In this document: positions 25,479 through 53,033 of the stretch, in pieces | How the letters are laid out: the number at the start of each line of letters is the position of its first letter | Position numbering within the stretch: the first letter of the stretch is position 1 | Origin: Naegleria gruberi | Lineage: Eukaryota | NCBI GenBank assembly: GCA_000004985.1 | Contig: GG738875.1 | DNA length: 64,000 bases | Strand: one strand, 5' to 3' | Notes under the pieces: model-generated | Told to the model about the DNA's origin: nothing | What the model saw: only the letters and a program-made list of their open reading frames with translations | The model's database searches: none | Translations under genes and position numbers: made by a program

Positions 25479-27134
25479 TTAAAACAATTCTGTTGATGTC
25501 AACTTTGAACCGCCAGTAACACCTTCAATCAAGTGTTTAAGACGAGTCTCCGAAGAACGTGTTGTTGAAATAATTTCTTCTCTGTTAAATCTTTCTACAG
25601 GTGTATTTTCCAAGATGTCACTCAACTTTTCTGTAACTCTTTCCAAATCTTCTTGCAAATATTCGAACAAGTTCTTTTCTTGACCATCCTCCAAATAATA
25701 TCCGTATACATAAGTATATTTCAAATTACCTCTGCATTCAATAAGAGTGTTCACTGCTTTTTGAATGTATTCTACATCAACCCATGAGCTATACTTATTC
25801 ATTTGTGTCAATTCTCTCATCTTTTCTTCAGTCTTTTCACGTAATTGTCTTTCGAATTTTTGTGACTTGTCGTGGTTGGCATATCTGGTGAAGTAGTGCA
25901 TATATTTTTCAAGAGCAGTACGAGCTGATTCTCTTTCATCTTCGTGCAACTTCTTCTTCAAATCTTCTGGTTGATACTTGTTACATTTATAATAACCACC
26001 AGTTTCACTTCCGTGAGTTGACCAAACATCCATACAAACCCAACAAAATTCGTATTTGCATTGAGAACATGTCATGTGGTTACAACCACCATTCTTTTCA
26101 ATAGAACGATTACATTTTGGACAATCCTATTTGAAAAAAATATAAGTGAACTTTGTAAAGTTCCTACATACCTTTGTGTTAGCAGTCAACCAAGTTGCTG
26201 TTTCTGATTCGTCTTGTTCTTTCTTCTTCCAAGCTTTTAATTGAGCACATGATGCAGGAACGTGAGCTTCACAAGAACACTTGAAACAGAACTTTTGATG
26301 ACATCCTCCGCATTGAACTGCTTCAACAGTAGTTTCTGGACAATAAACAGCTCTACCACAATCAGCAGTAGGACACCACTTAATTCTTGGATTATCTTCA
26401 ACAAAACTTCTCACTAAATATTTAGAATATGTCTTGTAACTATCTGCTGGCACCAATTCTTTGACAAGGGCTTCAATAATCAATGTTGTACATCCTCTTT
26501 CCAAACAACTTGCTGTGAGACAAGTATTACCATTATTAATACTAGTTATTAAATGTTGACGCCAACAATCTTGACAGAAATAGTGTTTGCAAGCCATTGC
26601 TAACATATTTGAACCATCATAGGTATCATAACAAACACTGCATTCATATTCTTTTCCTGGTACTCCTTGATAAACTTTAAAGTCATTGATATTAATGTTG
26701 GCTTTCTTTATCACACGGTCCTTATTTTCAAAAAAGTCATTCCAAAGTTTTTCCTTGTTCCAATCATAGCTTCTAAGTAAAATACCACAAGCTCCTACAG
26801 GAACACCCAACACAGTAGAAACTTCACTAACAAGTTCTTGTTGTTGTGCCATTAATTGTTCAGGATCAAGAGTGATGAATTGAATTTCCTTTGCAGCCAT
26901 TGGATTATCTTCGAGAGGATCTGTTGGAGTTAGAATTTCCAAATCATCTTCATCACCATCAAATGGATCATCTTTTGTTGGCATTGGTGAAGCATCCACA
27001 AGTTGAGCATATAATTCCTCCCTTGTAACACCCATATCAGCTAATTCTTCTTCTGTAAGTAAATCAATTTCTTCTCTAGTTAGGGTGGTATCTTCACCAT
27101 CCATAATATCAATATCTTCATCCATATCGGACAT
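25479..27134 (-). CDS. Ariadne-type RBR E3 ubiquitin ligase. Model: join(complement(26172..27134),complement(25479..26126)), about 536 aa
   Basis: Acidic N-terminus, then RING1 (CSVCYDTY...CKHYFCQDCW), IBR (CPTADCGRAV...CGGCHQKFCFKC) and RING2 (DCPKCNRSIEKNGGCNHMTCSQCKYEFCWVCMDVW), then the Ariadne C-terminal helical domain. RING2 is split by a 45-nt intron (26127..26171, GTATGTAGG...AAATAG) that joins the two track ORFs in frame. Confidence 0.8.
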
Positions 27135-27602: not shown

Positions 27603-30344
27603 ATGCCTATGAAAAAGACAAACCACAGGCTGAAGTGGAGTGTGGGAAAATATATTATATTCATAACAATATTAATAGTAGCTTTTTCTATTATAATATC
27701 ACATCAAGAACAAGTTAATCAAAAGAAAAAATCTAATAATCAAAATTCGGAAGAGGAAGAACCAAAGTTTATAATTTTGAAAGATGGTGATGAATCTGAG
27801 CTTGAAAACCTTCCTGAAGAGTTTAAACAAAAAATCAAGGAAGCTTTATTGAAAGTTAAGAGTAATATTAATTTTGAACAAGCTCCCCCAGAATCAAATC
27901 CTTTAAATAATAATATGCCTGATCAACAACAGACTAAAACTTCCCAAACAACCAAACCAACACCTCAAGTTGAAGAGACATTGGATACATCAATGTTAAG
28001 TGATATTTCTATTCCTTTGGATGAGATAACAATTCCAACAGAATATTCCTCAACATTGGATGAAGAGTTCACTAGAATTAAGAGAATGAAAGAATTAAAA
28101 CTTGTAACAAGAAGAAAATTCATGTCTAAAAAACTCAATGATTTGAGAAAACAACAAGAAAATGAAATTGATGGAAAGAAGGATTCTACAGAAAAATTAT
28201 TAGAAGCAAGAATGATTTTGGATCCCGATCTTCCAGAGTATGACAAAGAAGCTGTTGAAAAGGCAATTGGAATTTATCTTTCTGTTGTTAAAGAAGATCC
28301 AACAAACCCACTTGTATTGTATAATTTAGGAACAGTATATAAGGTAAGATTTTCTGAGAATATTAATGACTAATTGTTTAATTAGAGTGAAAAATTTGGT
28401 GTTAGAGACTTTTCCAAGAGTAAAATGTACTACATTTTGGCAGCTTATTTAGGTAGTCAAATGTCACAATTCGAGGTTGCTCTATTGTATAATAATAACT
28501 TGATTTCAAGCAAGGATTTAGAAAATGTGAAAAGTTTAATGATTGAGATATTTGGACCAGTTGAAACAATGAAAAAGCAAGTCAAACTAATTTATGAGAA
28601 GATTCCAAAATCTATTGAAAATCCTGAAACATTATCTTTGTTGAATCTTTTCTATAGCTCTTTAGGAGGAAATACTGGAGCAAATATTGCTTTGGGATAT
28701 AGACATATGTTCGGACATGGCGTACCAAAATCTTGTAAAACAGCTAGCTATTATTATTCGAAAGCAGCTTCTGATGTTATTGTCGAGTTTGAGGATAGCA
28801 GAATGCCTCTTATTGATCATGTAAGACTTAATGATGAGAGTGCTATTCAAAATAAGCAATCACAAGAGGATATTATGGAATATTACCAATATTCTGCTAG
28901 TAAGGGATCATCTTCATCGATGCTTATTTATGGTTATGCTAATTTATATGGTATAAGAGGTGTCGAGCAAAATGGAGAAGTTGCTAGAAGATTATTTGAA
29001 CAAGCTGCTGAGGCAGGAGAACACGAGGCTTTTGGCGCTCTTGGTAATATGTTCCTCAAGGGTGCTGAAGGTATTCCAAGAAATAATGAGACAGCTTTCA
29101 AGTACTTTAAGAAGGGAGCAGACAAAAAAGATCCATCCTCATTAAATGGGCTTGGAAAGATGTACCTTGAGGGATCAAATGATGAACAAGGAAATATCAT
29201 TCTTGAAAAGAATTTTGAATTGGCAGCTGGATATTTCAATAAGAGTGCATCATTGGGCAACTCTGAAGCTCATTATAATTTGGGTCTTTTATATTTGGAT
29301 GGTAAGGGTGTAAAGAAATCATTTAAACAAGCAATGCAACATTTTGCGATTTCAGCTCAACATGGTCAAGTTCTTGCCAAATATCAACTTGCCAATATGT
29401 ATCTTCATGGATTGGGAACTAATCCAAATTGTGAAATTGCTGTTAAATTCTTAAAATCTGTTGTTGAGAAGGCCTCATGGACTTCAGTAATGGAGAGTGC
29501 TTTTGAAAAGTTTGTATCAGGAGAGGATCAACATACTGCTCTTCTACTTTACCAACATGCTGCAGAAATGGGTATTGAAATAGCACAAGCTAACATTGCT
29601 TTCATGTATGACAGAGGATATGGATTTGAGGAAATTTCCAGTGGATTATCTGAAGAGGAAAGTGAATTGTTAAAATTCAAGGGAGCTATCAAATGGTATC
29701 AACAAGCAGCTGAACAAGGTAATGTTGATGCGTATGTCAAAGTTGGGGATTATTACTATTATGGTTCATCTGCTTTATCATCTTCAAACTCTTCTGTTGG
29801 AAGTTTAGAACAATCATACGAAAAGAGTATTTATTTCTATAGAAGAGCTAAGGAATTGAACAATGCTCAAGCAATGTTTAACTTGGGTTATATGCATGAA
29901 CATGGAAAGGGACTTCCACAAGATTTCCATTTGGCTAAAAGATATTACGACATGGCATCTGATGCTGATCCAGTAGCTTATGTTCCAGTTATTTTGGCCT
30001 TGGGTAAATTATATGGTCATTGGGGATTTTATTTAGTTAAAGATTATGTAACAAATATTTTCAATGAAATGCCAAGTAGTGAAATAGATGAAACCTCAAA
30101 CTCTGATATTTCAACTTGGTTGGTCAATCTCATAATTGAACATGAGGATTACTTTTTGGCTATTCTAATTGGTGGTCTAGCCCTACTTATTTTTGTCAGA
30201 CATGTAGTGAATAGTCAAGCTAATGCAAGACCAAGAAGACGTAGAGTAGTCACTACCACTGAAAACACTCAACAAGAAGATAACGTTAGAAACCAACAAC
30301 CAGAAGAGCAAGAAGAACACAATCAGCACGAACACCAAGAATAA
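27603..30344 (+). CDS. SEL1L / Hrd3-like Sel1-repeat protein (ERAD adaptor). Model: join(27603..28343,28386..30344), about 899 aa
   Basis: N-terminal signal/anchor (YIIFITILIVAFSIII). Many Sel1 repeats (AHYNLGLLYLDGKGV..., AMFNLGYMHEHGKGLPQD...). C-terminal TM helix (LAILIGGLALLIFV) followed by a basic/Gln-rich tail. A 42-nt intron (28344..28385, GTAAGA...AATTAG) joins the two track ORFs in frame. Confidence 0.75.
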
Positions 30345-30395: not shown

Positions 30396-33300
30396 ATGAG
30401 AGAAGATACAACTGAGAATTACAGTGAGGATGCCTTTATTGGTCATACATCGCTGTCAAATCTTCATCTTGTACTTCAAAATATATTTCTTCCATTCTTA
30501 TCAGATCAAAACGGACAAGAGGATGAAAATAATAATACAAACAATCAAAAATATGGTGAAACCTTACAAAATATACATACCCTAAATTCTGATTTCATAT
30601 CACATTTGAAAAAGTTTAGTGGACAAGTTGGATATACAGTTAAACAACTCTCTGGAGAAGTATTGATTGATTTACCGGAAGTGCATTTGGATGATCCCAA
30701 GACAGCAGCAGAGGATGAACATGTAAGTTTTTTATTTGATACTTGATGAGCTAATTATTAATACAATTAGATTGTTCAAAAATTGGAAGCATGCCTTAGT
30801 AGTTGGACTCAATCTATTAACTCCCTTTTAGAAAAGGTTGTGAATCAAGAAAGAGAAGGAGAGGTAAGCATTATTTGAAATTAAAATTCTAAAAAAATGA
30901 TTTAAAAAGGGACCTCTCTCCGAAATTGATTATTGGAGAACAAGACACGCTTCACTAGGAACAATTTGGGAATCACTAAATAGTAAAACTGTAAAGAATG
31001 CTATAGAAGTGCTCCGAATTTATGATGCACAATTATTACCTGGTTTTGATGACCAATTTCAAGAATTAACTAAATTATACATGGAAGCAAAGGAAAATGT
31101 AAAGTTTTTACAAACTCTTGAACGTCACTTTAAAAACATTTCACAAGCAAGAGGTTCATTAACACCAATTTCCGATACACTTCCTTCTATGATGAATGCC
31201 ATCAGAATGGTTTGGGTAATTAGTAGATATTATAATACAGACAAGAGAATGATACCTCTTATGGAATTAATTGCTCAAGAAATTTGCTTGAAAGTATCAC
31301 AATATATTAACCTAGAGACTAGTTTAGATGTAAATAATATTTTTAATAATCCGTACAAGTTAGCAGAAAGACTTCAAGAGGGAGCTGAAGTTTTACAAAA
31401 ATGGAAAACTGTATGTTTAAAAATTTAAATTTATTTATTAATATTGCTCTAGACCTACTTCCATGTAAGAGAAAAAATAGAAAATACAAGTAAGGATGAA
31501 CGTTGGCATTTTGAAAAGGACTCACTTTTTGAACAATCTGATTACATGTCAGAAAGATGTTACGAGTTGAAAGAATTAGCAATTTTTATTGGAAGATATA
31601 AATCATTTTTAGGTCCAGAATTGAGAAGTATGTTTTTAATTCTATCATTTTTTTAAATTTTATTTTAATCCATTAGATATTACTGGTGAAAGTGGTATTG
31701 ATGAAATTTTGGATAGATTGAAAGATCTTGTTACACCATTCCAACAAAATGCTAATTTAATTTTTAATAGAAATGCACAAATGAAGTGGATTGAAATATT
31801 TAAACAATTTAAAGAAAATTCAGAGGAAATTAAAATACAAACCAACTCATTTATTGATAAGAGTTTCAAGAAATTGAGATCAGCAGAGGGTGCCTTTAGG
31901 CTTTTACAAGATGTTAGAAAGATTCACAGCCAAGACAAAGACTCTATAAATCAAAAGATGATGCTCAAGTCGATAGATATTCTTGAAAGATATGGAGAAG
32001 AAGTTGATAATATTTATCAAATTTTCAACAATGAAAAATCTAATCCACCAAGAACAAAGAATATGCCACCAGTATCTGGAGCTATTTATTGGTCTCATTC
32101 ACTCTTTGAAAGAATTAGAAAACCAATGATTTTGTTCAAGGAGGCTCCAGATATGTTGGATACAGATGAAGGAAAGAAGATTCAAAATAAGAGTTTTACA
32201 GTAGCTAAAGAAATTCTAGAATTTGAAGAAACTAAATTTAAGGAATGGAAATCAACAGTGACGGAAGATACTATTAAATACTTGAAAGGCAATATTTTAA
32301 TGAAAGATGGTAATAAGATTGTTGTGAACTTCCATGCTAAACTTTTATTATTAATTCAAGAAACCAGATATCTTGATAAACTAGGTAAAAAAGTCCCAGA
32401 AATTGCTTTGAATGTAACTTTGCAAGAAGAAAAGTACCACAAGTACATTGAAAATCTCAGAGGAATGATAGAAAATTTCACTCAATCAAAGGATTCATTA
32501 GATAAGGCTGAAGAAAAGGTTCTTGCTCCTTTGATTAATAGATTGAAGAAAATATTAGAACCTGGATTTTCTGTTCTGAATTGGAACTCATTAGGTATTG
32601 ATGAGTTTATCAAAAGATGTAACACGGAAATCTCAGATTTTCAATCAATTGTGCAGAAAATGCAAAGAAACGCATCTGTAATCCGATCCTTAATCCAACA
32701 ACTCAAGAGTCCTTTTGCTACAAAACTGGACTTGAATGGAGAAATGATCACTTTACCAGAATTGGTTGAAACTATCGAAAGAAATGTTCAACAAAAAAGT
32801 GTCAGTCTTGCCAAGAAATACAAAACTATTGGTCAAACTTTATTGAAGATGGAAGGAGACCTCATCAATAGTAATGTTATAGAGAGTGAAAGTAAATCAG
32901 CAACAGGAAGAGAAAAGCTTTTACAGGGCTATTATGCCTATTGGGAAAAGAGAATTTTTAAAGCTCTTGTAAAGAATGTATCCTCAAGTATTGATGAATT
33001 GATGGATTTCCTGTACTTGAGTAAAAAGAAGAAGAATATCCCAATTAAGAAGAATCCTCTTCTCAAAGTTAACGTTTCATTGTATCACAAAGCTATTGCA
33101 ACATCACCAGATTTGGATGATATTTCAGATATGTTGGATAAGATTGTTAATAGCCCTATCAATGCTACTAAACATTTCGTGAGATGGTACAGTGGTACCT
33201 GCCATGAAATTACAAACATTGAAGTCAAAACAGAGAGGGATGACCAAATTGATATTCCTTCGATTATTGCTAATCACTTCTCTTTCTTCAATGAAATTCT

Positions 33301-36300
33301 TCAAATTCCTTTAATTACCAAGAAAGTTTTACTTTTAAATAATGGTATCCAGAAAACTTTAACTAATGTACAAAGATTTGTAAATACCTACACCAAATAC
33401 CAAGAGTATTGGAAGACACCAAAAGAAATGGCTATGGAAAAGTTTGGTAGTAAAGACCCTTCATGGGATGCCTATTACAGAAAATTGGAAGACTATCATA
33501 GATTGTTAGAAGATATTAATTCTCATACAAAACCAATCAAGGATTTAGAATTTATTAGAATAGATTCAACATCATTTATAAAATCCTTCACAGATGAATT
33601 GAGAAAATGGATTGAAGCAATGTCCAAATTATTAAATAGCAATATTGAACCTAAAGCCAAGGAATTAAATGCTAAAATTGATAGCTTCAAGGAGGGGTTA
33701 ACAATTGAAATCAAGGAACTTGATGATTTGAGAAAGGTACTTTCAGTAATTGATGAAGGTAGATCTAGCTCTGCTGATATAGAACGAGAATATAGAGAAG
33801 TTGAGGATGTTTACCATACTATGATTTCTTATGGTGTTAAAATTCCAACTGAAGAAATGGAACTTGTTAATGGACTGAGATCAAAATGGGAAAATTTAAT
33901 GGTAGCCTCAAAGGAAATGGAAATTGAATTGATTCCACAAAAAGAAAGATTCACTTCTGAGACACAAAAGAGAGTTTCTCAATTCCAAATTGAAGTTACT
34001 AAATTGAAGGACGAATTTGATAAAGGTCCAGGTAATCCATCAGTACAATTGGAAGAAGGTCTCGAACAAATGGAGTCACTTAAAGGTGCTATGGAAGAAA
34101 AGAAAAAGACCAGAGATTACCTTGTTCAATCAGAAAAATTATTCGACCTACCAATTACTCCTTATCCAGATTTTGTGCAACTCGAAAAGAAGATGGCCAA
34201 GTTTGGTAAGATTTTCGAAATATTTGGAGATTGGCAAAAGAAGCTTACCAAATGGTCTAGAACTCTTTGGGTTGAAGCTCCTATTGAAGAAATGACCAAA
34301 GAAACCTCACGATTCTCCCAAATGTTGATTAGTAAGAAGGAATTCCCTCAAGAGCTTCAAGAATTACCTGCTCACAAGACATTTAAGAGTAAGGTTAAAC
34401 ATTTCCAAAAGACCATTGAATTACTTTCATGTCTTAAGAGTGAAGCATTGAGAGAGAGACATTGGGAGCAATTGATGAAAGCTACAGGTAAAAACTTTGA
34501 TATCAATCCATCAACATTCACATTGAAAAATTTGATTGATATGAACTTGTATGAACACGAAAATAGTATTAATGAAATCACAGAATCTGCCAATAAGGAA
34601 CTTGATGTTGAAAATACAATTAAGAAGGTTGCTGAGGTTTGGAGAAATAGAAAATTCGATCTCAAGAAGCACATTAGAGATGGTGAAGATAGAGGTTTTG
34701 TTTTGACCGGTATTGATAGTGTAAAAGAACAATTGGAAGAAGATACTGCCAACTTGGCTGCCATTTCTGGTACTCAACATTCTGTACCTTTTGCTGCTGA
34801 ACTTAGCAAATGGGAAGGATATCTTTCTAAGATTGATGAAGTTACTACTCTTTGGGTAGATGTTCAAAGAACCTGGATGTACCTTGAAATCATTTTTATT
34901 GGTTCAGAAGATATTAAGGATCAATTACCAGAACAAGCAAAAGCCTTTAAGAAGATCGATACTGATTGGGCTAAAACTATGGCTGAAACAGCCAAGAATA
35001 GAAATGTGTTGGAGAATTGTTGCCAAGGAGGTGACAAACTTTCCCTCATGTCTAGTCTACAAATAAGACTCAACGAATGCCAAAAGGGTTTAAACAATTA
35101 TTTGCAATCAAAGAGAAACGCCTTCCCAAGATTCTTCTTCATTTCAGACAATGAGTTGCTAAGTATTCTTGGTTCTTCTGATTTGAATACTATCCAAAAG
35201 AGTATTGGTAACTTATTTGAAAACTGTGGTAGTCTTATTATCAAACCAAACACTAATTTAGTTTTAGGTATGGTTTCCAAAGAAGGAGAAGAATACACAT
35301 TCGATAAACCTGTAAGAGCTGAAGGATTTATTGAAAAATGGTTAACTGCTGTTCAAAGTGAAATGAGAAAGACACTCAAAATTATTATGAAAAAATCCGT
35401 CTACGCTTATCCATCTGTTCCTAGAATTGATTGGATCAAAGAGAATCTAGGAATGGTCACTTTGTGTGGCTCTCAAATTTGGTGGACTTGGGAAGTTGAG
35501 GATTCCTTTAGAAGAGTTAAAAATGGTGAAAAGATGGCTGTTAAAAATTTGGCTGTTTTACTCACTCAAAGATTGAACGCTTTGGTTGATGAAGTTAGAA
35601 CACCTCTTAATTCTCAAGTTAGAAAAAAGATTACCACCATGATTATTATCGATGTTCATGCCAGAGATATTGTAGACAGATTGGTAAGAGACAGTATTTT
35701 GGACGAAAGAGAATTCGATTGGGAAAGTCAATTGAGATTCTATTGGGACAAATCTGCTAACGATGTTAAAATTAGACAATGTACTGGTGAATTTGACTAT
35801 GGTTATGAATATATGGGTCTTAATGGTAGACTTGTTATTACTCCATTGACTGATAGATGTTTCATGACTTTAACTCAAGCTCTTACATTTAATTTGGGTG
35901 GTTCTCCATCTGGTCCTGCAGGTACAGGTAAAACAGAAAGTGTTAAAGATTTGGCCAAGAGTTTGGCTCTTATTTGTATTGTTTTTAACTGTGGTGAAGG
36001 TCTTGACTACAAGGCTATGTATATGAATTTTTCAGGTTTGTGTCAAACTGGTGCTTGGGGATGTTTTGATGAGTTCAACAGAATTGAATTACCTGTCCTT
36101 TCTGTCGTTTCTACTCAAATCAGAGAAATTCAAAGCGCTCTTAAGGCAGCAAAGGATGAATTTAGATTTGAAGAAGAAGATATCAAACTCGATAGAAAGC
36201 TTGGTATCTTTATTACTATGAATCCAGGTTATGCTGGAAGAGTAGAATTACCTGACAATCTCAAAGCATTGTTCAGACCATGTGTCATGGTAGTGCCTGA

Positions 36301-39300
36301 TTTGGAAATTATTTGTGAAATCATGTTGTTCTCTGAAGGTTTCAACTCTGCCAGAGTTTTGGCTAGAAAGATGACAAAACTTTATCACTTAGCCTCTGGA
36401 CAACTTTCAAAACAACACCACTACGATTGGGGTCTCAGACCACTCAAATCAGTCTTAGTTTTTGCCGGTAGATTAAAGAGAGAAAATCCAGAAAAGAGAG
36501 AGGATGAACTTTTAATGAGAGCTTTGCATGACATGAATGCTCCAAAGTTTGTTTATGAAGATACGCCACTCTTCCACGATTTATTGAATGATCTTTTCGT
36601 AAATATTTCATATGAAAGACTCACTTATCCAAAACTTTACAAGGCTGTAGAAGAATCATTACAAGAAAAAGAAATGAAGTTACTTGAAGATGGTAGTCAA
36701 GTCGATAAGGTTATTCAAGTTTATGAAACCCTTGAAACTCGTCACTCTGTCATGATTGTTGGTGAAACTCAAGGAGGAAAAACAGTTGTTTTCAATGCTC
36801 TATGCTCAGCATTGAAGAAGGCTTTCAACTTTAACGTTAAACAATTGGTAATGAATCCAAAAGCTCAAGGTTTGGCAGAATTGCATGGCGTGCTTAATAA
36901 GGATACCAGAGATTGGACTTATGGTTTACTTTCATACTACTTTAAGGAACTTAACCAACCTTGTGAAAAGGGTAATGAAAGAAGATATCTTGTTTTTGAT
37001 GGTGATGTAGATGCTGAATGGATAGAAAATATGAACTCTGTCATGGATGATAACAAGATTTTGACTTTACCAAATGGTGAAAGAATTACTCTTCTCAACC
37101 CTCTCTGTTCATTAATGTTTGAAGTTGGTAACTTGAAACAAGCTTCTCCTGCCACTGTCAGTAGATGTGGTATGGTCTATGTAGATCCTAAGAATCTTGG
37201 TTTTGAACCATTTATTTGGACTTGGTTAAATCACAAGCTCAAGAAGGATCACCCAGAGAAAGTTGAAGTAATGCAACGTTTATTCGAAAAATATGAAAAG
37301 TCTTGTGTTGACTATGTATTGAAAGGTATTGATCTTGATGGTTCATTTGTTGAGAGACTCAAATTGAACGTTGTTATGAATTCTGTCAGTTTGGTATCAC
37401 AACATTGTAATATGCTTGACGTAATATTTGCTGATCCAGAACAAAATACTGAAGATGAAAGAGAATTAGAGTGCCTCTTTGTTTTCTCTCTTATTTGGTC
37501 TGTTGGCGCTGTTGTTGTGGATAACGATAGAAAACGTTTTGATGACTTTATTAAGAAACTCACAAAGTGGAAATCTGTAGATAATGGTGAAAGCTTGACT
37601 GACCATTTTGTTGGTGTTGGTTGTTGTCCTTCAAGATTGACACTTTATGAATATTTCTTTGATATTAATAATCACCAATGGAAACCTTGGAAGGTTGCTG
37701 TCCCACTTTACACTCCTCCAGCTAATGGAAGATTCTCTAGTATTATTGTTCCAACTGTTGATACAGTTAGATATACTCATTTATTGAGTTCATTTGTATC
37801 ACTTGGTAAGCCAGTACTCTTTGTAGGCTCTTCAGGTACTGCCAAGTCAGTCATGATCAAGAACTTTGTTAAAGACTTGACAGACAAGAATGAGAAAATG
37901 ACTAATTTATCTATTAACTTTTCTAGTAGAACATCTAGTTTGGATTTGCAAAGAACCATCGAAGACAATATTGAAAAGAGAGTTGGTGATAACTACGGAC
38001 CTTTACAACAAAAGAAGATGATAGTCTTTATTGATGATATGAACATGCCAAACTTTGACAAATATGGTACCCAACAACCTATTGCTTTATTGAAATTGAT
38101 GTTAGAAAAGCAAGGTTTCTATGAACGTAAAACTACCAATCTGGCCTTTATGAGATTACTTGATATGCAATACGTTGCTGCCATGCAACCAACATTTGGC
38201 AGTAATGCTATGGATCCAAGAATTGTTTCTAAATTCAATGTGCTTAATATTTCTTTCCCATCTGATGATTCTATTGACCATATTTATAGTTCCATTTTAA
38301 GTCATCATCTTACAAACTTCTCTCAAGAAATTCAAGATGTTAGTTCAAAGATAACCAAGTCAACTATTAGATTGTACAAGTATCTTGTAAATTCACTTCC
38401 TCCAACTCCTTCCAAATTCCACTACCTCTTCAACTTGAGAGATTTGAGCAGAATTTATGAAGGTTTATGTTTATCTACTATTGATAAGCAAAACGAGGCT
38501 GCAAAGTTTATTAGATTGTGGAGAAATGAACTTTTGAGAGTTTTCCATGATAGACTTATCTCAGTAGCAGATAAAACTCTCACCATCAATGCTATTGAAG
38601 ATGAAATCAAGACTGTTTTCCATAGTCACTCAGAATATGTTCTCAGAAATCCAATTGTTTATGGCGATTTCCTTGACTTCCAAGATCCAAATAATCCAAG
38701 ATTATACGAAGATTTAACGGATTATGATAGAGTTAAGCCTGTTATTGAAGATGCCATCAATATTTACAATGAAAGACCAGGTATTAAGAAATTAGATCTT
38801 GTAATGTTCGAAGATGCATTGGAGCATTTAACTAGACTTTTGAGAATTGTTAGAATGGATAGAGGTAATGCTCTCCTTATTGGTGTTGGTGGTTCTGGTA
38901 AACAAAGTTTAACTAGACTAGCATCTTTTGTTGCTGGATATGAGTTATACGAAATCAAACTCTCAAGAGGTTATAATGAAAATCAATTCCGTGAAGATTT
39001 GAAGAATTTGTACAGAAAACTTGGTGTAGAAGATAAGAAAGTATTGTTCTTGTTTACTGATGCCCATGTTGTAGAAGAAGGATTTTTGGAATTCATCAAT
39101 AATATGCTTTCATCAGGTGTTGTTCCTGCATTATTCGAAGATAATGAAAAGGATGAACTCTACAACGCAGTATCTAAGGAAATTAAGACGACTAACATTG
39201 TTCCAAATAAGGAAAATATGTGGAACTTCTTTATTAACAAATGTAGAAATAATTTACACATTGTCCTTTCAATGACACCTACAGGTAGTACCCTCAGAGT

Positions 39301-42300
39301 TAGATGCAGAAACTTCCCAAGTTTAGTTAGTAGTACTACTATTGACTGGTTCACTTCTTGGCCTTCCCAAGCTCTCAAAGAAGTTGCTAACCAATTCTTG
39401 TCAGATGATTCAGTTCCGCAAGAATTGTTGCAATCTATCAATACTCATATGATTTTCGTACATCAAAGTGTTGAGAAATATAGTAATAGATTTGCTCTCG
39501 AATACAGACGTTATAACTATGTTACACCAAAGAATTATCTTGATTACATCAATACTTACAAGAGATTACTCAATGAAAATAGAAGTAAGATTGATGAAAT
39601 GATCAAGAGACTTGATGGTGGTTTGAAGAAACTAAGAGAAGGTAAAGATGAAGTTGAAGAAAGAAAGAAGGAATTATCTGAAGCCTCTGAAATTCTCCAA
39701 ACAAAGTCTGTTGAAAACCAACAGCTTCTTCAAGTTATTAGTGAAAGACTTACAGAAGCCTCAGAACAAAGTAAACTCCAACAAGAAAGAGAAGAAGAAA
39801 TTAAGAAGGAACTTGAAAACATTCAAAAGCAAAAGATTGAAGAAGAAGAGAAGTTAGCTGTAGCTGAACCCGCTGTTAGAGCTGCAGAAGAATCTTTGAA
39901 GAAACTTGACAGAAATGCTATTACAGAAATGAAGTCATTTGCCAGTCCTTCCCAAGTCATTCAAGATGTTGGTGCTTGTATTTATATCCTCTTAGAAGAT
40001 GATTCTCCATCACAAATTACTTGGTCTAATGTTAAGTCTATCATGACTGAAGCCTTCTTTAACAGATTGGTTACCTATGAAAAGTCAAGACTTACATCTA
40101 ATAAGATTAACAAAATTGAAACTATTTACAGAAAGAACGGTGATGCCATGAAACCTGAAGAAATTGCTAAAGTTTCAAGTACATTGGCTGAAATTATTAA
40201 GTGGGTTAACTCAATGAGAGAATACTTTAATGCTATGAGGGTCGTCAAACCAATCAGAAAGAAGAAGGAAGAAGCCGAAAGAAAGCTTGCCTCATTCACA
40301 GAACAATTAGCAACCATCAAATCAAAGCTCATTAAGTTAAAAGAGGATATTGCTGAATACAAGGTAAAATATCAAAGAGGTCAAGAAGAAGAAAAGAGTT
40401 TGATTGAAAAGAAATTAAGTATGGAAGCTAAACTTACAGCTGCCAACAAACTTATTGAAGGTTTAGGCTCGGAAAGAGAAAGATGGGCTCAACAAATTCA
40501 AGAACTTGCAGAAAAGAAGAATAGATTAATTGGTGATTGTTTAATTTGTTCAGCATTTTTGAGTTACACTGGTGCCTTCACTGTTGACTTTAGAAAGGAA
40601 ATGATTCAAGAATGGATCAATGAAATGAAGGAAACAGAAATTCCACTTACATTCCCATTCGATATTGAAGATATTCTTACTGACGATGTTCAAAAGAGTC
40701 AATGGGCATATGAAGGATTACCTTCTGATAAGATTTCTACTCAAAATGGTGTTCTCACAACCCACGCTTCAAGATTCCCTCTTTGTATTGACCCTCAACT
40801 TCAAGCTGTTAAATGGATCAAGAACAAGGAAAAGAACATTAGAGTTTGCTCTTTTAGTGATTCTGACTTTATGAGAAAGATTGAAAATGCTATGAAATAT
40901 GGAGAAACTGTACTTTTTGAAAATGTTGATGAAGTTATTGATCCAATGATAGATCCTGTTTTGGATATGGAAATTAAGGGAAAGAAGAGAATTGTTAGAA
41001 TGGGTGGTGATGAAATTGATGTTGATCCGAAATTCAAACTCTACATGTGTACCAGAATTTCCAATCCTCATTACACTCCTGAAATTGCCAGTAAGACAAT
41101 TATTATCAACTACAGTGTTACTGAAGAAGGTTTAGAAGAACAATTATTGAATATTGTAGTCAATCATGAAAGACCAGAACTTGAAGAAGCAAGAAGAGAA
41201 TTGGTTCAAACAATGTCTGAAAGCAAGACTTTACTTCAACAATTGGAAGCAAAAATTTTGAAGGAATTGAACTCTACAGGAGGTGGTTCCCTTATTGATA
41301 ATGTTGAATTGATTCATACTTTAGAAGAAACTAGAAACAAAGTACGTGAAATCAACACAAAGATCATTCAGACAAAGCAAAACGAGAAAGAAAACTTTAA
41401 GGCTAGACAAGGCTATAGACCTGCTGCAAAGAGAGGTACTATTCTCTACTTTGTCATGTCCAGTTTATCAAATATTAACTCTATGTATGAATATTCATTA
41501 TCTTCATTCTCACAAGACGTCTTTGAAACTTCATTGTCAAGAAGTCAACCTTCAAGAATGTTAGAAGGTAGATTGGATAATATTGTTGACTACTTGACCA
41601 AGTCAGCATATAGTTATACATGTGCTGGTTTGTTTGGTGTGCACAAACTTTCATTCTCTCTCCAAATTGTTCTCAAGATTATGGATAGTGAAACTAGACT
41701 TAATCAAGCTGAACTTGATTTCTTCCTCAAGGGTGATCTAACAATTGGTCTTGAAACTCCAAATCCATGTGAATGGTTATCTGAAAGCAGTTGGAAAGAT
41801 TTGTTAGCCCTTTCAAAGATTTGCGAAAACTTAAAGGGATTATCTGAAGACGTTACCAATAATTCTTTATGGAAAGAATGGTATGACCATGCTGAGCCAG
41901 AAGCTTTACCTCTTCCAAACGAAAAATATCAAAGTGTTGTTACTCCATTCCAACAAATGTGTATTCTTCGTTGTTTGAGACCTGACAGAATTGTAGTTTC
42001 TGCAACCAAGTTTATTGCAGATGAGATGAAGAATGAATATTTTGTCAAACCACCTGTTCTCACTTTTGAAAATATCTTTAGTCAAAGTTCCAAGCTTTCA
42101 CCAATTGTTTGCATGATCAGTCCTGGTTATGACCCAGCAAATGACATTATCAAACTTTCAAATGAACTTGATAAGAGAGTCAAGTATATTTCTCTTGGTG
42201 AAGGTCAAGGTGAAAAAGCCCTTGCTTTGCTTGAAAAAGGTATTTCTAAAGGCATGTGGGTTCTTCTTCAAAATTGTCATTTGTTGGTTGATTGGATGAA

Positions 42301-43921
42301 GAATGTTGAACACATTTTAGAAAAACTTGAAAAGGATAAGGTTCATGATGAATTTAGACTCTGGTTAACAACTGAAGTTACTCCAAAATTCCCTATTGGT
42401 ATTCTTCAACGTTCTCTTAAGGTTGTCACAGAGCCTCCAAACTCTTTGCAACTTAACATGAAATCAACATTTTCTAATATTTCTGATCCAGAGTTAGATG
42501 AATGTCACCACAAATCTTTCAGACCATTAGTTTATGTTCTGTCTTATTTCCATGCTGTTATCCAAGAAAGAAGAAAGTATGGTAAAATTGGTTGGAATAT
42601 TCCATATGATTTCAACAAGTCTGATTTTGATGTCAGCTTCAGTCTTATTAGAACATATTTGAATAAGGCATCAATGTATAATGATCCAATTCCATGGGAC
42701 AGTCTCAAGTACCTTGTTGGTGAAGCTATGTATGGTGGTAGAGTTACAGACAAGTTTGACAGAAGAGTTCTTACTACATATCTCAATGAATTTATGGGTG
42801 ACTTCTTGTTTGATACCTTCCAACCTTTCCGTTTCTACGAAGATGAAAGTGTTTGTTATGAGTTACCACCAATGGAAAGAGAAAAGCTTATCGGAAAACA
42901 AAATATGATTGTTCCACTTGCTGTAGAAGATTTCTCTGAATTTATTGAGAGGAACGTTAAGCTTACAAACTCTCCAAGCGTTTTTGGTTTGCATCCTAAT
43001 GCAGAAATTGGTTACTTGACCAATTCTACATCTAATTTGTGGAGTGATCTCATATCTTTACAAATTGGTGTATCTTCTCATGGTGGTAAAGGAACTGGTG
43101 ATGAATATATCAAATCAGCCCTCAGCATTATCCCAGAACCATTTGATAAGGAAGAAATTCAATCAAAGATTCTTCAAAAGTCAAGCAAGCTCACTCCAAT
43201 TAATGTAGTCTTACTTCAAGAAATTGATAGATGGAATGCTCTAGTAGCAGTTATGAAGAGATCATTAATTGATTTGCAAAAGGCTTTGGCTGGTGAAATT
43301 GGTATGAGTGAAGAACTTGAAAATTTGAGTAATTCCATTAATATTGGTATAGTTCCTCAACTCTGGAAGCAAATGGCACCACCAACAAGATTGAATTTAT
43401 CTTCATGGTTAGAACATTTCAAGGAAAGATATAGTCAATATGTTGATTGGATTAAGTATGGTGAAGATCCTGTTGTTATTTGGTTGAGTGGTTTGCATGA
43501 ACCAGTTTCCTACATCACTGCTCTTATTCAAATGACATGTAAGAAATACAAATGGCCTCTCGATCGTACAACTATTACAACTAGAGTTACAGAGTACAGA
43601 GCCTCACATCAAGTCAAAGAAAAGCCTCAAGATGGTTGTTATGTGCGAGGTTTATTCTTGGAAGGAGCTGCTTGGGACTTGAAGAATAGATGTCTTAAAA
43701 CACAAAATCCAAAACAATTGAGAGAAGAACTTCCTATTCTTGAAATTATTCCAACAGAAAACTCCAAAGTCAAATTACAAAATACTTTCAATGCACCTGT
43801 TTATTATACTCCAGATAGAAATGATGGTGGTAATAAGGGATTGGTATTTGAAGCTAATCTCCAAACTGATGAACACGAAAGTATTTGGACCTTACAAGGT
43901 GTTGCAGTAACAATGACTTAA
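30396..43921 (+). CDS. Axonemal dynein heavy chain of about 4,446 aa (inner-arm-like). Model: join(30396..30722,30771..30863,30910..31410,31453..31627,31677..43921)
   Basis: Four short 5' introns of 48, 46, 42 and 49 nt with GTAAGT, GTAAGC, GTATGT and GTATGT donors. They join the track ORFs 30396.., 31009.. and 31709.. in frame. The N-terminal DHC_N1 signature is present (SMMNAIRMVWVISRYYNTDKRM). AAA1 P-loop GPAGTGKTESVKDLAKSLA...FNCGEGLDY...WGCFDEFNRI. AAA2-4 P-loops GETQGGKT, GSSGTAKS, GVGGSGKQ. Stalk and C-terminal domain are present. The final 12.2 kb is intron-free. Confidence 0.85.
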
Positions 43922-43969: not shown

Positions 43970-44149
43970 TTACACTCTATACCAATAGTTTTCACAAAAT
44001 TGTTTCGAATAGTGTAGATATATCCTGTGGGCAACAATCTTTTCGGCAAGTGCTGATTTCTTTCCTTTAGACTTGATTCTCAAACTTTTGCAAATTTCGA
44101 CCAATTCCTCTTTCCTCTTCTTGATCAATTCTACTGTTTCTTCTGACAT
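43970..44149 (-). CDS. Small ORF (59 aa) with a SAP-like DNA/RNA-binding motif
   Basis: ATG at 44149, stop TAA at 43970-43972 (checked by manual reverse complement). MSEETVELIKKRKEELVEICKSLRIKSKGKKSALAEKIVAH resembles the SAP helix-extended-helix consensus (L..LKV.EL..EL..RGL...G.K..L..RL). It is below the 60-aa threshold of the ORF track. It lies tail-to-tail with the dynein gene and head-to-head with the NTPase gene. Confidence 0.3.
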   Translation of the reverse strand: MSEETVELIKKRKEELVEICKSLRIKSKGKKSALAEKIVAHRIYLHYSKQFCENYWYRV

Positions 44150-44265: not shown

Positions 44266-46437
44266 ATGTGGAAGGCCCCGACGCAAACGTTTGTTAAATC
44301 AAACTCTTACGGCCTTTTCTTTTTGCCAACAAAAGTCAGATTTAACCAAGTTAATCTTAGGGTTGTTAAACAAACAAATAACGTTAACTATCCCCAACCT
44401 CTAAGCTTTACGAACAATATGACATTTCCCAACAAACAATATTTTGAAGGCGAGGATTTGATGAATATGATGGATCAGGTTGCAAGGAAGATGAAGGATG
44501 TTACTGAAAAGCCTAAATGTAAACAAGTGTTGAATACCTATCGCACAGAGAGCCACGTACAAATATACAGATTTCTAGCCTCTGTTATGAATCAACTCCA
44601 ACACAATGAGTACAAAGATTGTAGAGGTCTAAATTCCCACACACTCATTGGACGAAGAGGAATTGGAAAAACAGCAACTCTCACCAATATATCTTTAGCC
44701 GGTCAATTATTGTTTCCAAAAATTATTCCTATTTACATTTCGTATTTGGGTATTCAGAATGATCCGTTCCTTCAACAACACACAGTCATGGAAGTTGTGG
44801 AAATGGTTCTAAATGAGCAGGGTATTCCAGTAGACACACTTGGAGGAAGATTTGTGAACATTATGGAAGCACTTTTTGAAGTAGATAAGCACGTTTTACT
44901 TATTGTGGATGAAATTGATCAATTGTATCAAGTTTGCCCAAATGGCTGGAGTGACACTTTGATTAAATCTTTGGGAGAACTTGCATCTATTGGTGATAAT
45001 GATAGTGGAAGGTTTTCAGCAATTCTTTGTGGCTCCTCTTCAAGAATTTCTTTACTTGTCAATGCCAATGGTAAGAAGGATGAAGTTACAGTGAAAGAGT
45101 TTCCTCTTGTTGCCAGCTCACCAAATTTGAATGGAAACAAGTTTAGAATAAGACGAATCCTTACGAATCCCCCAACTGACATTACAGTTGCTGCTCATAT
45201 CTTAGAATCTGGACTGGTCAATACAAAAAACAAGGCTATGTGTAAAGCTGTTACCTTTATTACTGGAGGTGTTACAAGAGAAATTCAGAGATTACAGTTT
45301 GAAAGAAGAGATGAGACATTCTTCACCTCTCTCCATGTAGAATCTAATCCTAAAGCTTTGGCTACATTATCCTCACCTGCAGGAGAAATTTGGAACAACA
45401 TTTTAGCTTTGCTATTCGAAAAAAACAAAGAATTACTTGAACAATTAGTAGATAAGGATGGGCTTACTGATATGGAAAAAGTAAAGAGTGTAAATTGGGA
45501 ATACCTGTTCAAGCCTTTAAGTTATACTGAACTCAAAGAAAAGATGGGTTCTGTAACCAATTTAGACCATTGGATTTTCCATTTGTTTGACAGAGATTAT
45601 ATTACTGTTTGTGAGATCAATAATGGAAGACCAGATGAAATTTACCCATACTCACTATATATGCTTTTGAGAAGTGGAATGACAGCAAGTACCAAAAGAG
45701 ATGATGCTAAACAAATATCTGCTTTTTTTAGAGGCATTATTTGTGAAATTTCTTCAAGCATCAAGGATCCTAAAAAGATGGGGGGTGTTGTTTTTAATTG
45801 GAGCTTTCGTGGGATAATTGGTTCGGCAGTAAATTCGTTATGAGCATTCTATTTCCAAATATTTTTAATCACCAACCCTAAAGAGAGATTCTAATTCCAA
45901 TAAGAAATCTAGCTCACAAGTTGATGAAATTTCTGCAAGACCTCCAATTAGAAGATCTAAAGTACCAATTCATTACAGTAATAAGGAAAGAACAACAAAA
46001 CATCCATCTTCACATACCTTGAAAAAGATTGAGATTGAAGATCATTGTAAGTTTTACAACATATATCGAATTTGTTGTGAACTTTATTGAAAGGTCCAAA
46101 ATGTGAAAAGAAGATTGAAAAATCTGCATTTGAGTATCATGTAAGAAGATGTAATTCCTCTAAAAATCAACCTAGAAAGTCATCTCTTGATTCAAACTGG
46201 AAATCTAAACATGGATTTTGTTTATCAAGAATAAGAAACAAAAGATTTCTAGTAAAGATAGTGAAATTCCAAAAGATGAATCCATTTAATAAACTCAAAC
46301 CTTGTTCTTATAAAGTACCTAAAATTATTAGAATAAACATGTTGGATCCACTCATCACTCATCTATTCAGCTCATTACTAAATGTATGTTGTTGGAATAA
46401 TGAAAAGGGTTCAAGAACTGTATCCTCCAACACTTAA
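44266..46437 (+). CDS. Novel P-loop NTPase (STAND / Arch_ATPase-like). Secure part 44266..45843 (525 aa). Possible extended model join(44266..45828,45884..46046,46094..46437) adds a C-terminal C2HC zinc finger (about 689 aa)
   Basis: Walker A LIGRRGIGKTATL and Walker B LLIVDEIDQL, followed by a helical domain. No close eukaryotic family recognised. The 525-aa ORF ends at TGA 45841-45843. An in-frame GCA|GTAAAT donor at 45829 and a ctaaAG acceptor at 45883 would skip the stop and read through a Ser/Lys-rich linker. A second intron (46047..46093, GTAAGT...GAAAG) leads into the ZC2HC1/FAM164-type C2HC zinc knuckle CPKCEKKIEKSAFEYHVRRC. The downstream exons have no ATG of their own. Confidence 0.5.
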
Positions 46438-47667: not shown

Positions 47668-48816
47668 ATGTCTCAAAACACAACAACTGGTGATATTGGT
47701 CAACAAGCTGTCTTTATCAAGACTGATCCATATGAATGCGGTTTATTACAAAAGGAAGTTCGTGGTTATGATTTTAACAATGATTTGAAGGATTTGAACA
47801 AACCAATTGACTATAATGCTCTTCTTGAATCATATTATACTACCGGATTCCAAGCCCACAATTTTGGTGAAGCTGTTAATATTTTGAATGCCATGTTACG
47901 TTGGAGATTGAGTGATGAACCAATGATGGAAAATGAACAAGAACCATATGATGATCCTGAAGTTAGAAAGAATACCAAATGTAAAGTTTTTCTCGGATAT
48001 ACTTCAAATATGGTTTCATGTGGTGTTAGAGAAGTGATTAGATTCTTGGTTCAACATAAATTAGTTGATGCCATTGTTACAACTTGTGGTGCTATTGAAG
48101 AAGATATTATGAAGACAATGCAACCAACTTATTTGGGTGCTTTTGATTTGGATGGTAAAATGTTGAGACTTAATGGTATCAATAGAATTGGTAATTTGTT
48201 GATTGCTAATCAAAACTATTGTAAATTTGAAGATTGGATTACCCCAGTTTTGGATGCCATGTTAGAAGAACAATATAAGGGTAAATTGTGGTCTCCTTCA
48301 CTTATGATTGATAGATTCGGAAAGGAATTGAATAACGAAGATTCTATTTTATATTGGGCTCACAAGAATGAAATTCCAATTTATTGCCCATCCCTTACTG
48401 ATGGTTCAATTGGTGATATGCTCTATTTCCACTCTTATTCTGATAAGAAGGGTGACGGTCTTGTTTGTGACATTGTTAGTGATATTAGAAGATTGAACGG
48501 TCAAGCTGTTCGTGCCAAGAAGACTGGTATGGTTATTTTAGGAGGTGGTGTTATTAAGCATCACATTTGTAATGCCAATTTAATGAGAAATGGTGCTGAT
48601 TTCACTGTTTATATTAATACTGGTCAAGAATTCGATGGTTCTGATGCTGGTGCTAGATGTGATGAAGCTGTCAGTTGGGGTAAGATTCGTCTTGGATCAA
48701 GACATACCAAGATTTATGCTGAAGCTTCTCTTATTTTCCCACTTCTTGTTGCTCAAACATTCGTCAAATATCAACGTGAACAAGAAGAAAAGAAATTGAA
48801 AGAACAACAGCAATAA
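47668..48816 (+). CDS. DHPS: Deoxyhypusine synthase, 382 aa
   Basis: The stretch [23 protein letters not shown]...[55 protein letters not shown] is near-identical to animal and fungal DHS. The catalytic Lys region is present. Confidence 0.9.
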
Positions 48817-51016: not shown

Positions 51017-53033
51017 TTAAACACTTTTAGTTTCTTCCTCTTCTGTTTCATATCTTCTCTTCAAAATTGATTTAGGTACAGTTAGGGAAAGAATAAAGGT
51101 GAATATACACACTCCAGCACACACCCAAAAACTAATCTTGTCGACGAGTGGAACTTTTCCAATCCAAGAGTTTGGATTTGATTCAGTGATACTTTCAGCC
51201 CAATTCAATCCAACACTAAGCAATACTCCTCCAATGAATGGACCTGAAGCCCAACCTATTGAAGCAGTAATATGTGCTAATCCAGTTGTGCTTCCAATGT
51301 GTTCCGAAGATGGGGCTGAATTGTTGACAAGTAAGAATTGAGAGGTATAGGCCATTTCTTGTGCGCATGATTTGATAAAGATACAAAAAGTGGCAAAAAT
51401 AAAAACAACCCAAGGATTCCACTCATATTGGACTAGTTCAGTACTGAATGGAAAAACTATTACGTCAATGATGTAAACTATCAAGCCAATTCTGAAGAGC
51501 CATAAGAATCCAAGCTTATCAGATAATTTTGGATAAATAATTAACATTATTAGTGAAGTAACGCCACCAATAGAAAGCATTAATCCAATTTGTGACGAAT
51601 CCAAAGCTAGACCTCTCTTTTGAATTGAATTACTGGCAAAAACTAACAAATATTAATATCATTATAACAAAAAACTTACTTGGAACCATTTCGTCCATAA
51701 TATTAGTAGCAAGACCAAGGAAGAGATACAACAAAGCAACCTTAACAACTATAGAATCTTTCAACAGATAAAAAAGACTCAAGTTTGGTTTTTCCTTATT
51801 AGCAGCTACCTTTGTCTCAATTGAAGATGTTTCCTCGACAGAATTTGAGTCCTCTTCCAATAAATTATCCTTAGTACTGTAGGCGTCTAAGTTTGTCGTG
51901 GAAGCACTTATCATTTCAATAGATGCTTCTTTTTCCTCTTCCACAATTTTCTTTTTTCTTATTCCAACCTTTACAAGAAACCAATTTACAATATCAAATC
52001 TATTCTTTAAAGATTCTTTCATGAAAAATATTGTGCAAATAATTGAAATAATATTCATAATGACTGGAATGGAGAGCGGTAGCACGTACGGATTAGTGTT
52101 AAAGAAATTATAGAGCCATGTTTCTTTACCTCCAAAAAGGAAAGGCCATTTTTCGGCAGGTTTAGACAACCAACCTCCCATTCCAGGAGAAACGATGTTA
52201 CTCACAGCCCAAATACAACTAATAAGCACAAAGGCTTTTTCCTGATTGCTCGAATTGGTAATATCAATAGTGAATGACTTGTAAATTGGAACGTTAGCAT
52301 TCAAAGCTCCGTGAATTGTTCTAACAACTAGGGCAAACCAAAAATTCTTTGAAAATGCAAATAATGACAAAAAGATTACATTCACAACTAAGCCCGATAA
52401 CAATAAGGGTTTTCTTCCTAAATGATCACTCGATCTTGAAATGAACCAATTGGAAATTAATTGAGCAACTGAATAGGCAGATGCCAAAATACCAACCAGT
52501 AATCCAACTCTTTCCTCTGGTATTTCCAATTCATCATGATTGATAATTGTACCATTTCCAATCAATGAACTATTTACACTAAATAATTTCGAATCAAATT
52601 GTTTCGAATATAAATAACTTTTTGGCAAAATTGCAAAACTATTAAATCCCAAGTTGTAACTTGTTGTAGTAGTATTATAACTCAGTGTTCCATTATTTAG
52701 ACGTGCTTCTTGTTGTTCAAACAACAGAAAATCTCTCACCATAAATGGCACAACAGGATAGAGAATTGAATAACCAACAGCCTCAGCAATGATAATTATC
52801 GATATCATTATCATGGCCATTTTAGGCAATGGTGTCACTTCTGGTTTCACTTCCTCTTGATTACTTTCCAAATTTTGTTCCTGTTGCTCTTCTACTTGTT
52901 GATTGTTATCATCAATAATTCCTTCATTATCATCATCATCTGCCAATCGGATGATATTCACCGAAGAAGATAACGAGTGAGTATTGTCATCATCCATTTC
53001 TGGTGGTGAGTCTTGTTGTGGGTGATGACTCAT
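51017..53033 (-). CDS. Major facilitator superfamily transporter. Model: join(complement(51680..53033),complement(51017..51642)), about 659 aa
   Basis: Acidic/Gln-rich N-terminus, then about 12 TM helices with MFS-like loop motifs (HLGRKPLLLSGLV). A large cytoplasmic loop is present. The two track ORFs are joined by a 37-nt intron (51643..51679, GTAAGTTTTTTG...TTGTTAG), giving ...IMDEMVPS|IFASNSIQKRG... in frame. Confidence 0.7.

Follow-up and report, generated by a model that had tools for sequence, protein, structure and literature searches.

A predicted P-loop ATPase-winged-helix protein of Naegleria gruberi represents an unannotated eukaryotic family and is probably spliced to a C2HC zinc knuckle

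The window analysed in this work is a stretch of 64,000 nucleotides (nt) of contig GG738875.1 from Naegleria gruberi (NEG-M, assembly GCA_000004985.1), and the gene under study is NAEGRDRAFT_68862 on the plus strand. The first exon of this gene coincides with an open reading frame (ORF1, 44266..45843, +) that starts with ATG and consists of 525 codons followed by TGA. The GenBank product (XP_002675861.1, EFC43117.1; "predicted protein", 597 amino acids (aa)) is 100% identical to the ORF1 product over aa 1-508, and the Joint Genome Institute (JGI)/GenBank model already joins this NTPase ORF to downstream exons. NAEGRDRAFT_68862 is therefore a real gene that is annotated already yet uncharacterised, and the proposal of the initial annotation that a previously undescribed component lies here is not supported. 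A chance origin of the ORF is far exceeded because a stop-free frame of 525 codons is found in DNA of 35% guanine-cytosine (GC) content and 778 homologous clusters exist. ORF1 is predicted to encode a whole folded module of NTPase core, lid, and winged helix. The explanation that we favour for the locus as a whole, with reasonable rather than strong confidence, is an annotated nucleotide switch of a eukaryotic family that is probably spliced onto a lineage-specific linker and zinc knuckle. The neighbours of the gene in the window are a dynein gene, a proteasome beta subunit gene, and a 382-aa ORF (47668-48816) that we take to encode deoxyhypusine synthase, and no transposon context was seen. 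The GC content is 30-37%, which, like these neighbours, is in keeping with N. gruberi nuclear DNA, and that of the gene equals that of its surroundings.

Both motifs that were described initially in the 525-aa ORF, GRRGIGKT (Walker A) and LLIVDEID (Walker B), are present at their reported places. The Walker A motif (44650..44673, +; aa 129-136) contains G132, G134, and K135, which are invariant in 64 family members. The Walker B motif (44896..44919, +; aa 211-218) contains D215 and E216, which are nearly invariant (at least 90% conserved) in the same members. The motif LCGSS (45025..45039, +; aa 254-258) lies at the end of strand beta4 at the sensor-1 position, and its C255, G256, S257, and S258 are also at least 90% conserved. 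The motif NLNGNKFRIRR (45124..45156, +; aa 287-297) runs into strand beta5, has N289, K292, R294, and R297 conserved, and is a candidate box VII or arginine-finger region. The motif GGVTR (45265..45279, +; aa 334-338) belongs to a lid helix with conserved G334 and R338, and it appears to resemble the AAA+ sensor-2 motif 'GDAR' of Cdc6/ORC. The winged-helix domain (45376..45648, +; aa 371-461) has N387, W411, P417, D442, and P461 conserved. The invariant catalytic residues in the family alignment are G132, G134, K135, D215, E216, and R338.

The structure of the 525-aa protein was predicted with AlphaFold (AF2) from the 64-sequence alignment, which gave a predicted local distance difference test (pLDDT) score of 87.6 and a predicted template modelling (pTM) score of 0.87. 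This model replaced a poor one that was built from six sequences (pLDDT 58.6). The predicted P-loop core consists of five strands (124-129, 153-159, 209-215, 250-256, and 294-298) with pLDDT above 90. The core is followed by a predicted helical lid at about 307-368, in which helix 337-346 accompanies the conserved G334 and R338, then by the winged helix, and finally by a long helix (474-499) that leads into disorder. Walker A (GxxxxGK[ST]) and Walker B (hhhhDE) motifs are thus found on a five-stranded core, which is the combination that marks a P-loop NTPase of AAA+/STAND. In the predicted model, the exon 1 protein is a P-loop ATPase core with a lid and a winged helix within the AAA+/STAND assemblage. 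A single-sequence search gave no relative in the PDB; the best structural matches of the model are the archaeal proteins 2qen (PABY2304) and 2fna (Sso1545) of PF01637 at 12-14% identity.

The protein was compared with the curated models of the related families. The Pfam model AAA_22 (PF13401) was matched at 23.3 bits (E=8.6e-5), which is under the gathering threshold of 27 bits, and it was matched at E<0.01 in 63 of the 64 relatives. The Pfam model ATPase_2/Arch_ATPase (PF01637, gathering threshold 33.2 bits) was not matched by the window protein at E<=1; half of the relatives (32/64) matched it at E<0.01, and every relative with a listed score lies under the cutoff. The NACHT match is also sub-threshold (E=0.038), and the ORC-CDC6-like model (PF24389) reached E=0.17 and 11 bits against a cutoff of 27. 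The initial annotation had set its Arch_ATPase/STAND-like description against an assignment to ORC/Cdc6, and no such assignment was obtained, the Orc1/Cdc6 model TIGR02928 reaching 13.1 bits against a cutoff of 181.3. Family membership in Arch_ATPase, STAND, or ORC/Cdc6 fails the curated thresholds. The description as Arch_ATPase/STAND-like is fair as a resemblance, with 2qen and 2fna as the best folds, but it does not stand as an assignment, and ORC/Cdc6 is equally close.

The archaeal PF01637 ATPases are the nearest in fold, but the window family is eukaryotic, is often N-terminally extended, and has its own conserved motifs LCGSS and NLNGxKFRxRR. We know of no established function for the PF01637 proteins themselves. 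The window protein shares the NTPase, helical domain, and winged-helix module with STAND NTPases. However, a STAND protein would continue into sensor repeats, whereas the window protein has only one helix, a disordered linker, and the zinc knuckle after its winged helix, and neither in the window protein nor in longer relatives did Pfam find STAND sensor repeats (LRR, WD40, TPR) or an effector domain. The window NTPase also differs from NACHT, NB-ARC, Avs, and nSTAND1 proteins in that it is about 500 aa long and has no PADLOC match. Its lid has an AAA+-like GxxxR motif, whereas the GxP motif of STAND is not clear there. The AAA_22 group of TniB-TnsC-MuB transposition ATPases differs in turn, since the window protein lies under the AAA_22 cutoff and its gene has no transposon context.

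The family is eukaryotic, sizeable, and unannotated, and it is spread among microbial eukaryotes. A single-sequence word-indexed search identified six homologue clusters, and the same kind of search with the 64-sequence profile added no further members. When 1.84 billion representatives were searched exhaustively with the profile, 778 matches were obtained at E<=1e-3 (clusters at 50% identity), of which 251 are at E<=1e-30, and the matches are typically 450-560 aa long. Every member that was looked up is an unnamed protein, the sources being metagenomes, Logan assemblies, MMETSP transcriptomes, and EukProt. The homologue contigs that were examined carry eukaryotic neighbours (mitochondrial carrier Mito_carr, Adaptin, RING, and histone) and have GC contents of 30-68%. 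No relative was found in 185,579 prokaryotic species (one genome each) or among the viruses of IMG/VR, where both scans were limited to Walker-motif patterns and are weak negatives, and PADLOC gave zero matches for the NTPase. The family is considered eukaryotic because of the MMETSP and EukProt members, the eukaryotic neighbours, and the absence of prokaryotic and viral relatives in these scans. The initial statement that the ORF has no obvious eukaryotic family is accordingly replaced. The NEG-M protein is 41-55% identical to other heterolobosean-like homologues, with the motif residues invariant.

The closest homologue outside N. gruberi (L003 1-2440, JGI metagenome 3300002220) is 55% identical and was called as three genes. 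It diverges directly after the motif HLFDRDYIT, and its splitting and divergence suggest introns or decay there too. One marine protist MMETSP transcriptome contains several close paralogues or isoforms (P0028, P0169-P0171). One of these (P0170) is fused to an N-terminal transmembrane segment and to a stretch that presumably resembles an FAD-binding reductase, and it could be a chimeric transcript. Several distant members (P0103, P0107, P0113, P0114, P0122, P0126, P0127, P0128, and P0154) have a common extra N-terminal module that follows a presequence-like start ('..HVFAR/FFVKR..(Y)AxVEV....SVAALKKA..'). This module resembles a small header of beta-grasp or ubiquitin-like type; no domain was identified in it by Pfam in the four proteins that were scanned (P0107, P0113, P0114, and P0127). 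Some distant members had been suspected of carrying a Crinkler-type header, but none was detected at E<=1e-3, and a Pfam scan of ten longer relatives gave no accessory domains.

Downstream of ORF1 lies an open frame (46087..46437) that has only a TTG 'start' and no ATG. The initial annotation had connected it to the NTPase through two short introns, and the GT/AG sites at 45829, 45883, 46047, and 46093 are present. The splice sites are GCA/GTAAAT at 45828/45829, ctaaAG/AGA at 45883/45884, and T/GTAAGT..gaaAG/GT at 46046/46094, and joining them gives an uninterrupted 689-aa product that contains CPKCEKKIEKSAFEYHVRRC. In this version, the candidate intron 1 (45829..45883, +) is 55 nt long (GTAAAT..AAG) and holds both the TGA of ORF1 (45841-45843) and a TAA of the linker frame, frame A (45866-45868). 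In the JGI version, the candidate intron 1 starts at 45790 (+), is 94 nt long, and uses the donor GTT/GTTTTT with the same acceptor at 45883/45884. The GTAAAT donor is at least as good by consensus as GTTTTT, and the 17 codons between both donors score as non-coding (-0.62), so the JGI donor is favoured by that score. In frame A, exon 2 (45884..46046, +) would encode a linker that is basic and rich in Ser and Lys (RDSNSNKKSSSQ...IEIEDH). Frame A is open only from 45869, is closed by the TAA at 45866, and contains zero ATG, and it is thus translatable only after splicing to ORF1. Intron 2 (46047..46093, +) is 47 nt long, lies in phase 1, has the consensus donor GTAAGT and an AAG acceptor, and is the same in the JGI model and in the sibling strain described below. 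Its removal makes the first Cys codon of the zinc knuckle (T + GT, first base 46046).

The coding potential was scored with a codon model that was trained on the long open frames 890-14476 (-) and 31709-43921 (+). Exon 2 has a log-likelihood of 0.43 per codon in frame A, in line with the real genes of the window (0.48 +/- 0.21 in 54-codon windows). None of 4850 simulated stop-free frames with intergenic composition reaches this score (99th percentile 0.18), nor does any real stop-free intergenic frame in the window. The independent JGI model agrees on the acceptor at 45883/45884 and on intron 2 at 46046/46094. If the gene had no further exons, its tail-to-tail distance to the next gene would amount to 693 nt, compared with 49 nt at a neighbouring gene pair.

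The zinc knuckle (46094..46152, +) reads C-PKC-EKKIEKSAFEY-H-VRR-C and has the C2HC spacing C-x2-C-x11-H-x3-C. It was initially classed as ZC2HC1-type, a label that has to be withdrawn: PF13913 (ZC2HC1) was not matched even at E<=10, and among curated models only zf-Vps39_C, Zn_ribbon_6, and Sgf11 were matched at sub-threshold values (E of about 0.006-0.007). The knuckle is like the Sgf11-type knuckle in its spacing and its CPxC start, with a weak match of E=0.007. It may resemble UBZ4/Rad18-type fingers as well. The JGI model contains a third intron (46141..46229, +; GTAAGA..AAG, 89 nt) that would cut out VRRC including the fourth zinc ligand, the last Cys. The counterpart in the sibling strain is 96 nt long, in frame, and stop-free, and by our estimate only about 2% of true introns would have a length divisible by three and be stop-free. 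The sibling ORF is continuous through this stretch (...HVRRCNSS...LILFIKNKKQKISSKDREIPKDESI-stop; in the fuller reading, ...EYHVRRCNSSKNQPRKSSLDSNWKSKHGSLILFIKNKKQKISSKDREIPKDESI-stop), and NEG-M has a 7-nt deletion after 46214 relative to the sibling. The JGI third intron was rejected on these grounds, as the sibling stretch is in-frame coding and the NEG-M deletion is probably a frameshift that was bypassed by the predictor. A complete C2HC knuckle is therefore most likely encoded, because this intron looks like the way of the predictor round the frameshift.

The ancestral C-terminal tail, NKKQKISSKDSEIPKDESI followed by TAA (46230..46289, +), is coding-like with a score of 0.64, and it is reached in NEG-M only via the JGI splice. 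The read-through tail of the 689-aa product (...CLSRIRNKRF...SSNT-stop; 46231..46437, +) scores -0.21, has no coding signal, and is frameshifted or 3' untranslated region (3'UTR)-like. In the sibling strain, it also differs by a 5-nt indel near 46425. The proposed NTPase-linker-knuckle product of about 689 aa is therefore plausible as a fusion, on the exon 2 score, the frame kept in the sibling, and the agreement of JGI, but its last 74 aa are non-coding-like and lie downstream of the strain-specific 7-nt frameshift.

The sibling is an N. gruberi-like strain of about 98% identity that was recovered from metagenome run ERR1078381 (PRJEB11402; L007 1-1495 and L001 1-1226). Its intron 1 has a 1-nt deletion and a 5-nt insertion, and the insertion makes a TAG acceptor by which frame A is restored. 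Between both strains, zero indels and one synonymous change occur in exon 2, intron 2, and the knuckle, and intron 2 is identical. The strain indels, four in all, are confined to intron 1 and the tail, and the frame is preserved. On this evidence from the DNA, the splice-mediated fusion of the NTPase to the linker and zinc knuckle is judged probable. The linker and knuckle are probably an addition limited to the N. gruberi lineage.

The switching mechanism of the encoded protein is most likely the one suggested by analogy with its structural neighbours, ORC/Cdc6, the archaeal PF01637 ATPases, and STAND NTPases. Binding and hydrolysis of ATP would control self-association and the transition from a closed to an open form, and the role of the winged helix would be to touch nucleic acid or to keep the ADP state locked. 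By the same analogy, the protein may combine ATPase-driven oligomerisation with ligand binding. Solely in the lineage of N. gruberi, this module would be joined through two short introns to the disordered basic linker and the single C2HC knuckle, and the knuckle may add a second handle that binds nucleic acid or ubiquitin.

Several observations weigh against this explanation. The fold neighbours from which the mechanism is drawn are only 12-16% identical, and the codon-usage score of ORF1 is an atypical 0.146 per codon, far under the mean of the other window genes, which could reflect low expression, relaxed selection, or a different history. Other observations concern the fusion itself and are consistent with a gene that ends at the TGA at 45843, in which case the linker and knuckle frames would be 3'UTR or a dead relic and the fused models would be prediction artefacts. 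The intron-1 donors GTAAAT and GTTTTT are both without the +5 G and all three acceptors are AAG, unlike six introns of the window, picked by eye from gap sequences as the local splice consensus, which have GTA[AT]G donors and TAG acceptors. The AF2 fold stops near aa 499. The knuckle was seen in none of the 150 listed family proteins nor at the closest heterolobosean-like loci, and no homologue of the same NTPase and C2HC architecture was encountered. The C2HC pattern exists only with the splice, and about 0.3-1 such patterns are expected by chance per 64 kb by our estimate. Neither transcripts nor peptides of the fusion were found: an exact look-up of the 525-aa ORF gave no transcript-derived protein, a search of the spliced C-terminus in a set of 5.8 billion proteins gave no match, and the gene identifiers were not found in literature searches or in the available supplement text of three N. 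gruberi omics studies. Termination at this TGA does not explain why exon 2 scores above all simulated and real stop-free intergenic frames, or why four indels fall in the flanking intron and tail but none in frame A and the knuckle, where one synonymous change is the only difference. Intron 2 also has a perfect GTAAGT donor in a phase that exactly builds the CxxC, and the better TAG acceptor of the sibling restores the same frame. A gene that ends at ORF1 is regarded as a serious but clearly less probable alternative than the fusion.

A decaying or dispensable gene, an incipient pseudogene of which the intact NEG-M ORF is a recent survivor, is a slightly weaker candidate again. The sibling copy has GAA changed to TAA at codon 389 (E389*), which was seen in two assemblies of the same reads and is not an independent confirmation. 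ORF1 differs from the sibling by 5 synonymous and 18 non-synonymous changes, and the ratio of non-synonymous to synonymous substitution rates (dN/dS) by the Nei-Gojobori method (NG86) is 0.96 with dS of 0.015. The 7-nt tail frameshift of NEG-M, the low codon adaptation, and the missing identifiers in the omics supplements point the same way, and the gene may be dispensable because the sibling strain has a premature stop. However, the 525-codon frame and all catalytic motifs are intact in NEG-M, and the long-term conservation among heterolobosean-like homologues is strong. The dN/dS of about 1 could also have arisen wholly on the disrupted sibling lineage or reflect diversifying selection; either the relaxation stems from the sibling copy being a pseudogene, or the gene itself can be dispensed with or is diversifying. 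The gene may thus be dispensable or decaying. A divergent paralogue of the ORC/Cdc6-type replication initiators, a common eukaryotic family, is very unlikely. The sensor-2-type lid arginine (G334, R338) and the C-terminal winged helix are alike, but this layout is common to PF01637/STAND and is not discriminating, and three predicted helices between beta2 and beta3 (167-171, 174-184, and 195-205) are compatible with an initiator-specific insertion (ISM) in the AF2 model only. The match to ORC/Cdc6 is confined to the Walker A-B region, the window gene is disrupted in the sibling strain, and the curated models TIGR02928 and PF24389 fail by a wide margin, on which ORC/Cdc6 orthology was rejected. 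The least likely explanation, in our view hardly tenable, is a recent horizontal gain of a prokaryotic Arch_ATPase/STAND gene, an origin that had been raised initially. An archaeal PF01637 protein has the closest fold, the codon usage is atypical, and no named model-organism homologues were found. However, the homologues lie in eukaryotic contexts and transcriptomes over a wide range of GC, the gene matches its surroundings in GC, and the pattern-limited prokaryotic and viral scans were empty, as was PADLOC. Recent horizontal transfer was rejected for these reasons.

The favoured explanation, an annotated eukaryotic-family ATPase that is probably joined to a lineage-specific knuckle, reveals no new kind of system, and the gene may be dispensable in view of the premature stop in the sibling. 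A sizeable 'dark' protist family that lies outside every curated model gains a description and a confident predicted fold. The family is positioned at the boundary of AAA+ initiators and STAND immune-type NTPases, and it bears on the relation of both classes in eukaryotes. The public 597-aa annotation probably includes one spurious intron, by which a zinc ligand is lost, and the first donor of that annotation is doubtful. A more speculative and rather improbable extension is that this is an undescribed widespread ORC/Cdc6-STAND-like ATPase-winged-helix family, of which many members either enter mitochondria and work on the nucleic acids there or form a minimal class of eukaryotic conflict or immune NTPases. 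A conflict or immune role, if true, would explain the dN/dS of about 1, the strain-specific disruption, and the multiple paralogues in one MMETSP organism. It would also explain lineage-specific additions, among them the Naegleria knuckle and, in distant members, the N-terminal modules that look ubiquitin-like.

The N-terminal extension of the window protein (aa 1-60; 44266..44445, +) has zero acidic residues, as no D or E occurs before residue 61, and aa 1-31 are disordered (pLDDT below 50). Among 93 full-length members, 65% have at most one D or E in the first 30 aa, with a mean of 1.5 compared with 3.9 internally, and many full-length members begin with 'MLR..'. The MMETSP members are without presequence-like N-termini, and the gene was not found in the available supplements of PMC8134430, a study of the organelle proteome of N. 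gruberi. The Naegleria N-terminus looks like an organellar presequence, a possible lead that comes from a crude composition count.

The consensus introns of the window belong to the genes 25479-27134 (-), 27603-30344 (+), 31009-31800 (+), 51017-53033 (-), and 16750-17858 (-). These introns are about 42-80 nt long and have the donors GTATGT, GTAAGT, GTAAGA, and GTAAGG with TAG acceptors. Two Cys/His-rich motifs in the gene at 25479-27134 are taken to be RBR/IBR-type zinc fingers. Both frames that were used for the codon model are very long and almost intron-free. The sequence motifs of the plus-strand frame (4070 aa) identify it as an axonemal dynein heavy chain, and the minus-strand frame (4528 aa) is assumed to be a dynein from its size alone. 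A 59-aa ORF (43970-44149, -) lies head-to-head with the NTPase gene across a 116-nt gap, and the stop codon of the dynein gene is only 49 nt away. This ORF matches the SAP DNA-binding motif, where SAP_new25 is above its cutoff (E=2.4e-7) and SAP reaches E=6e-4.

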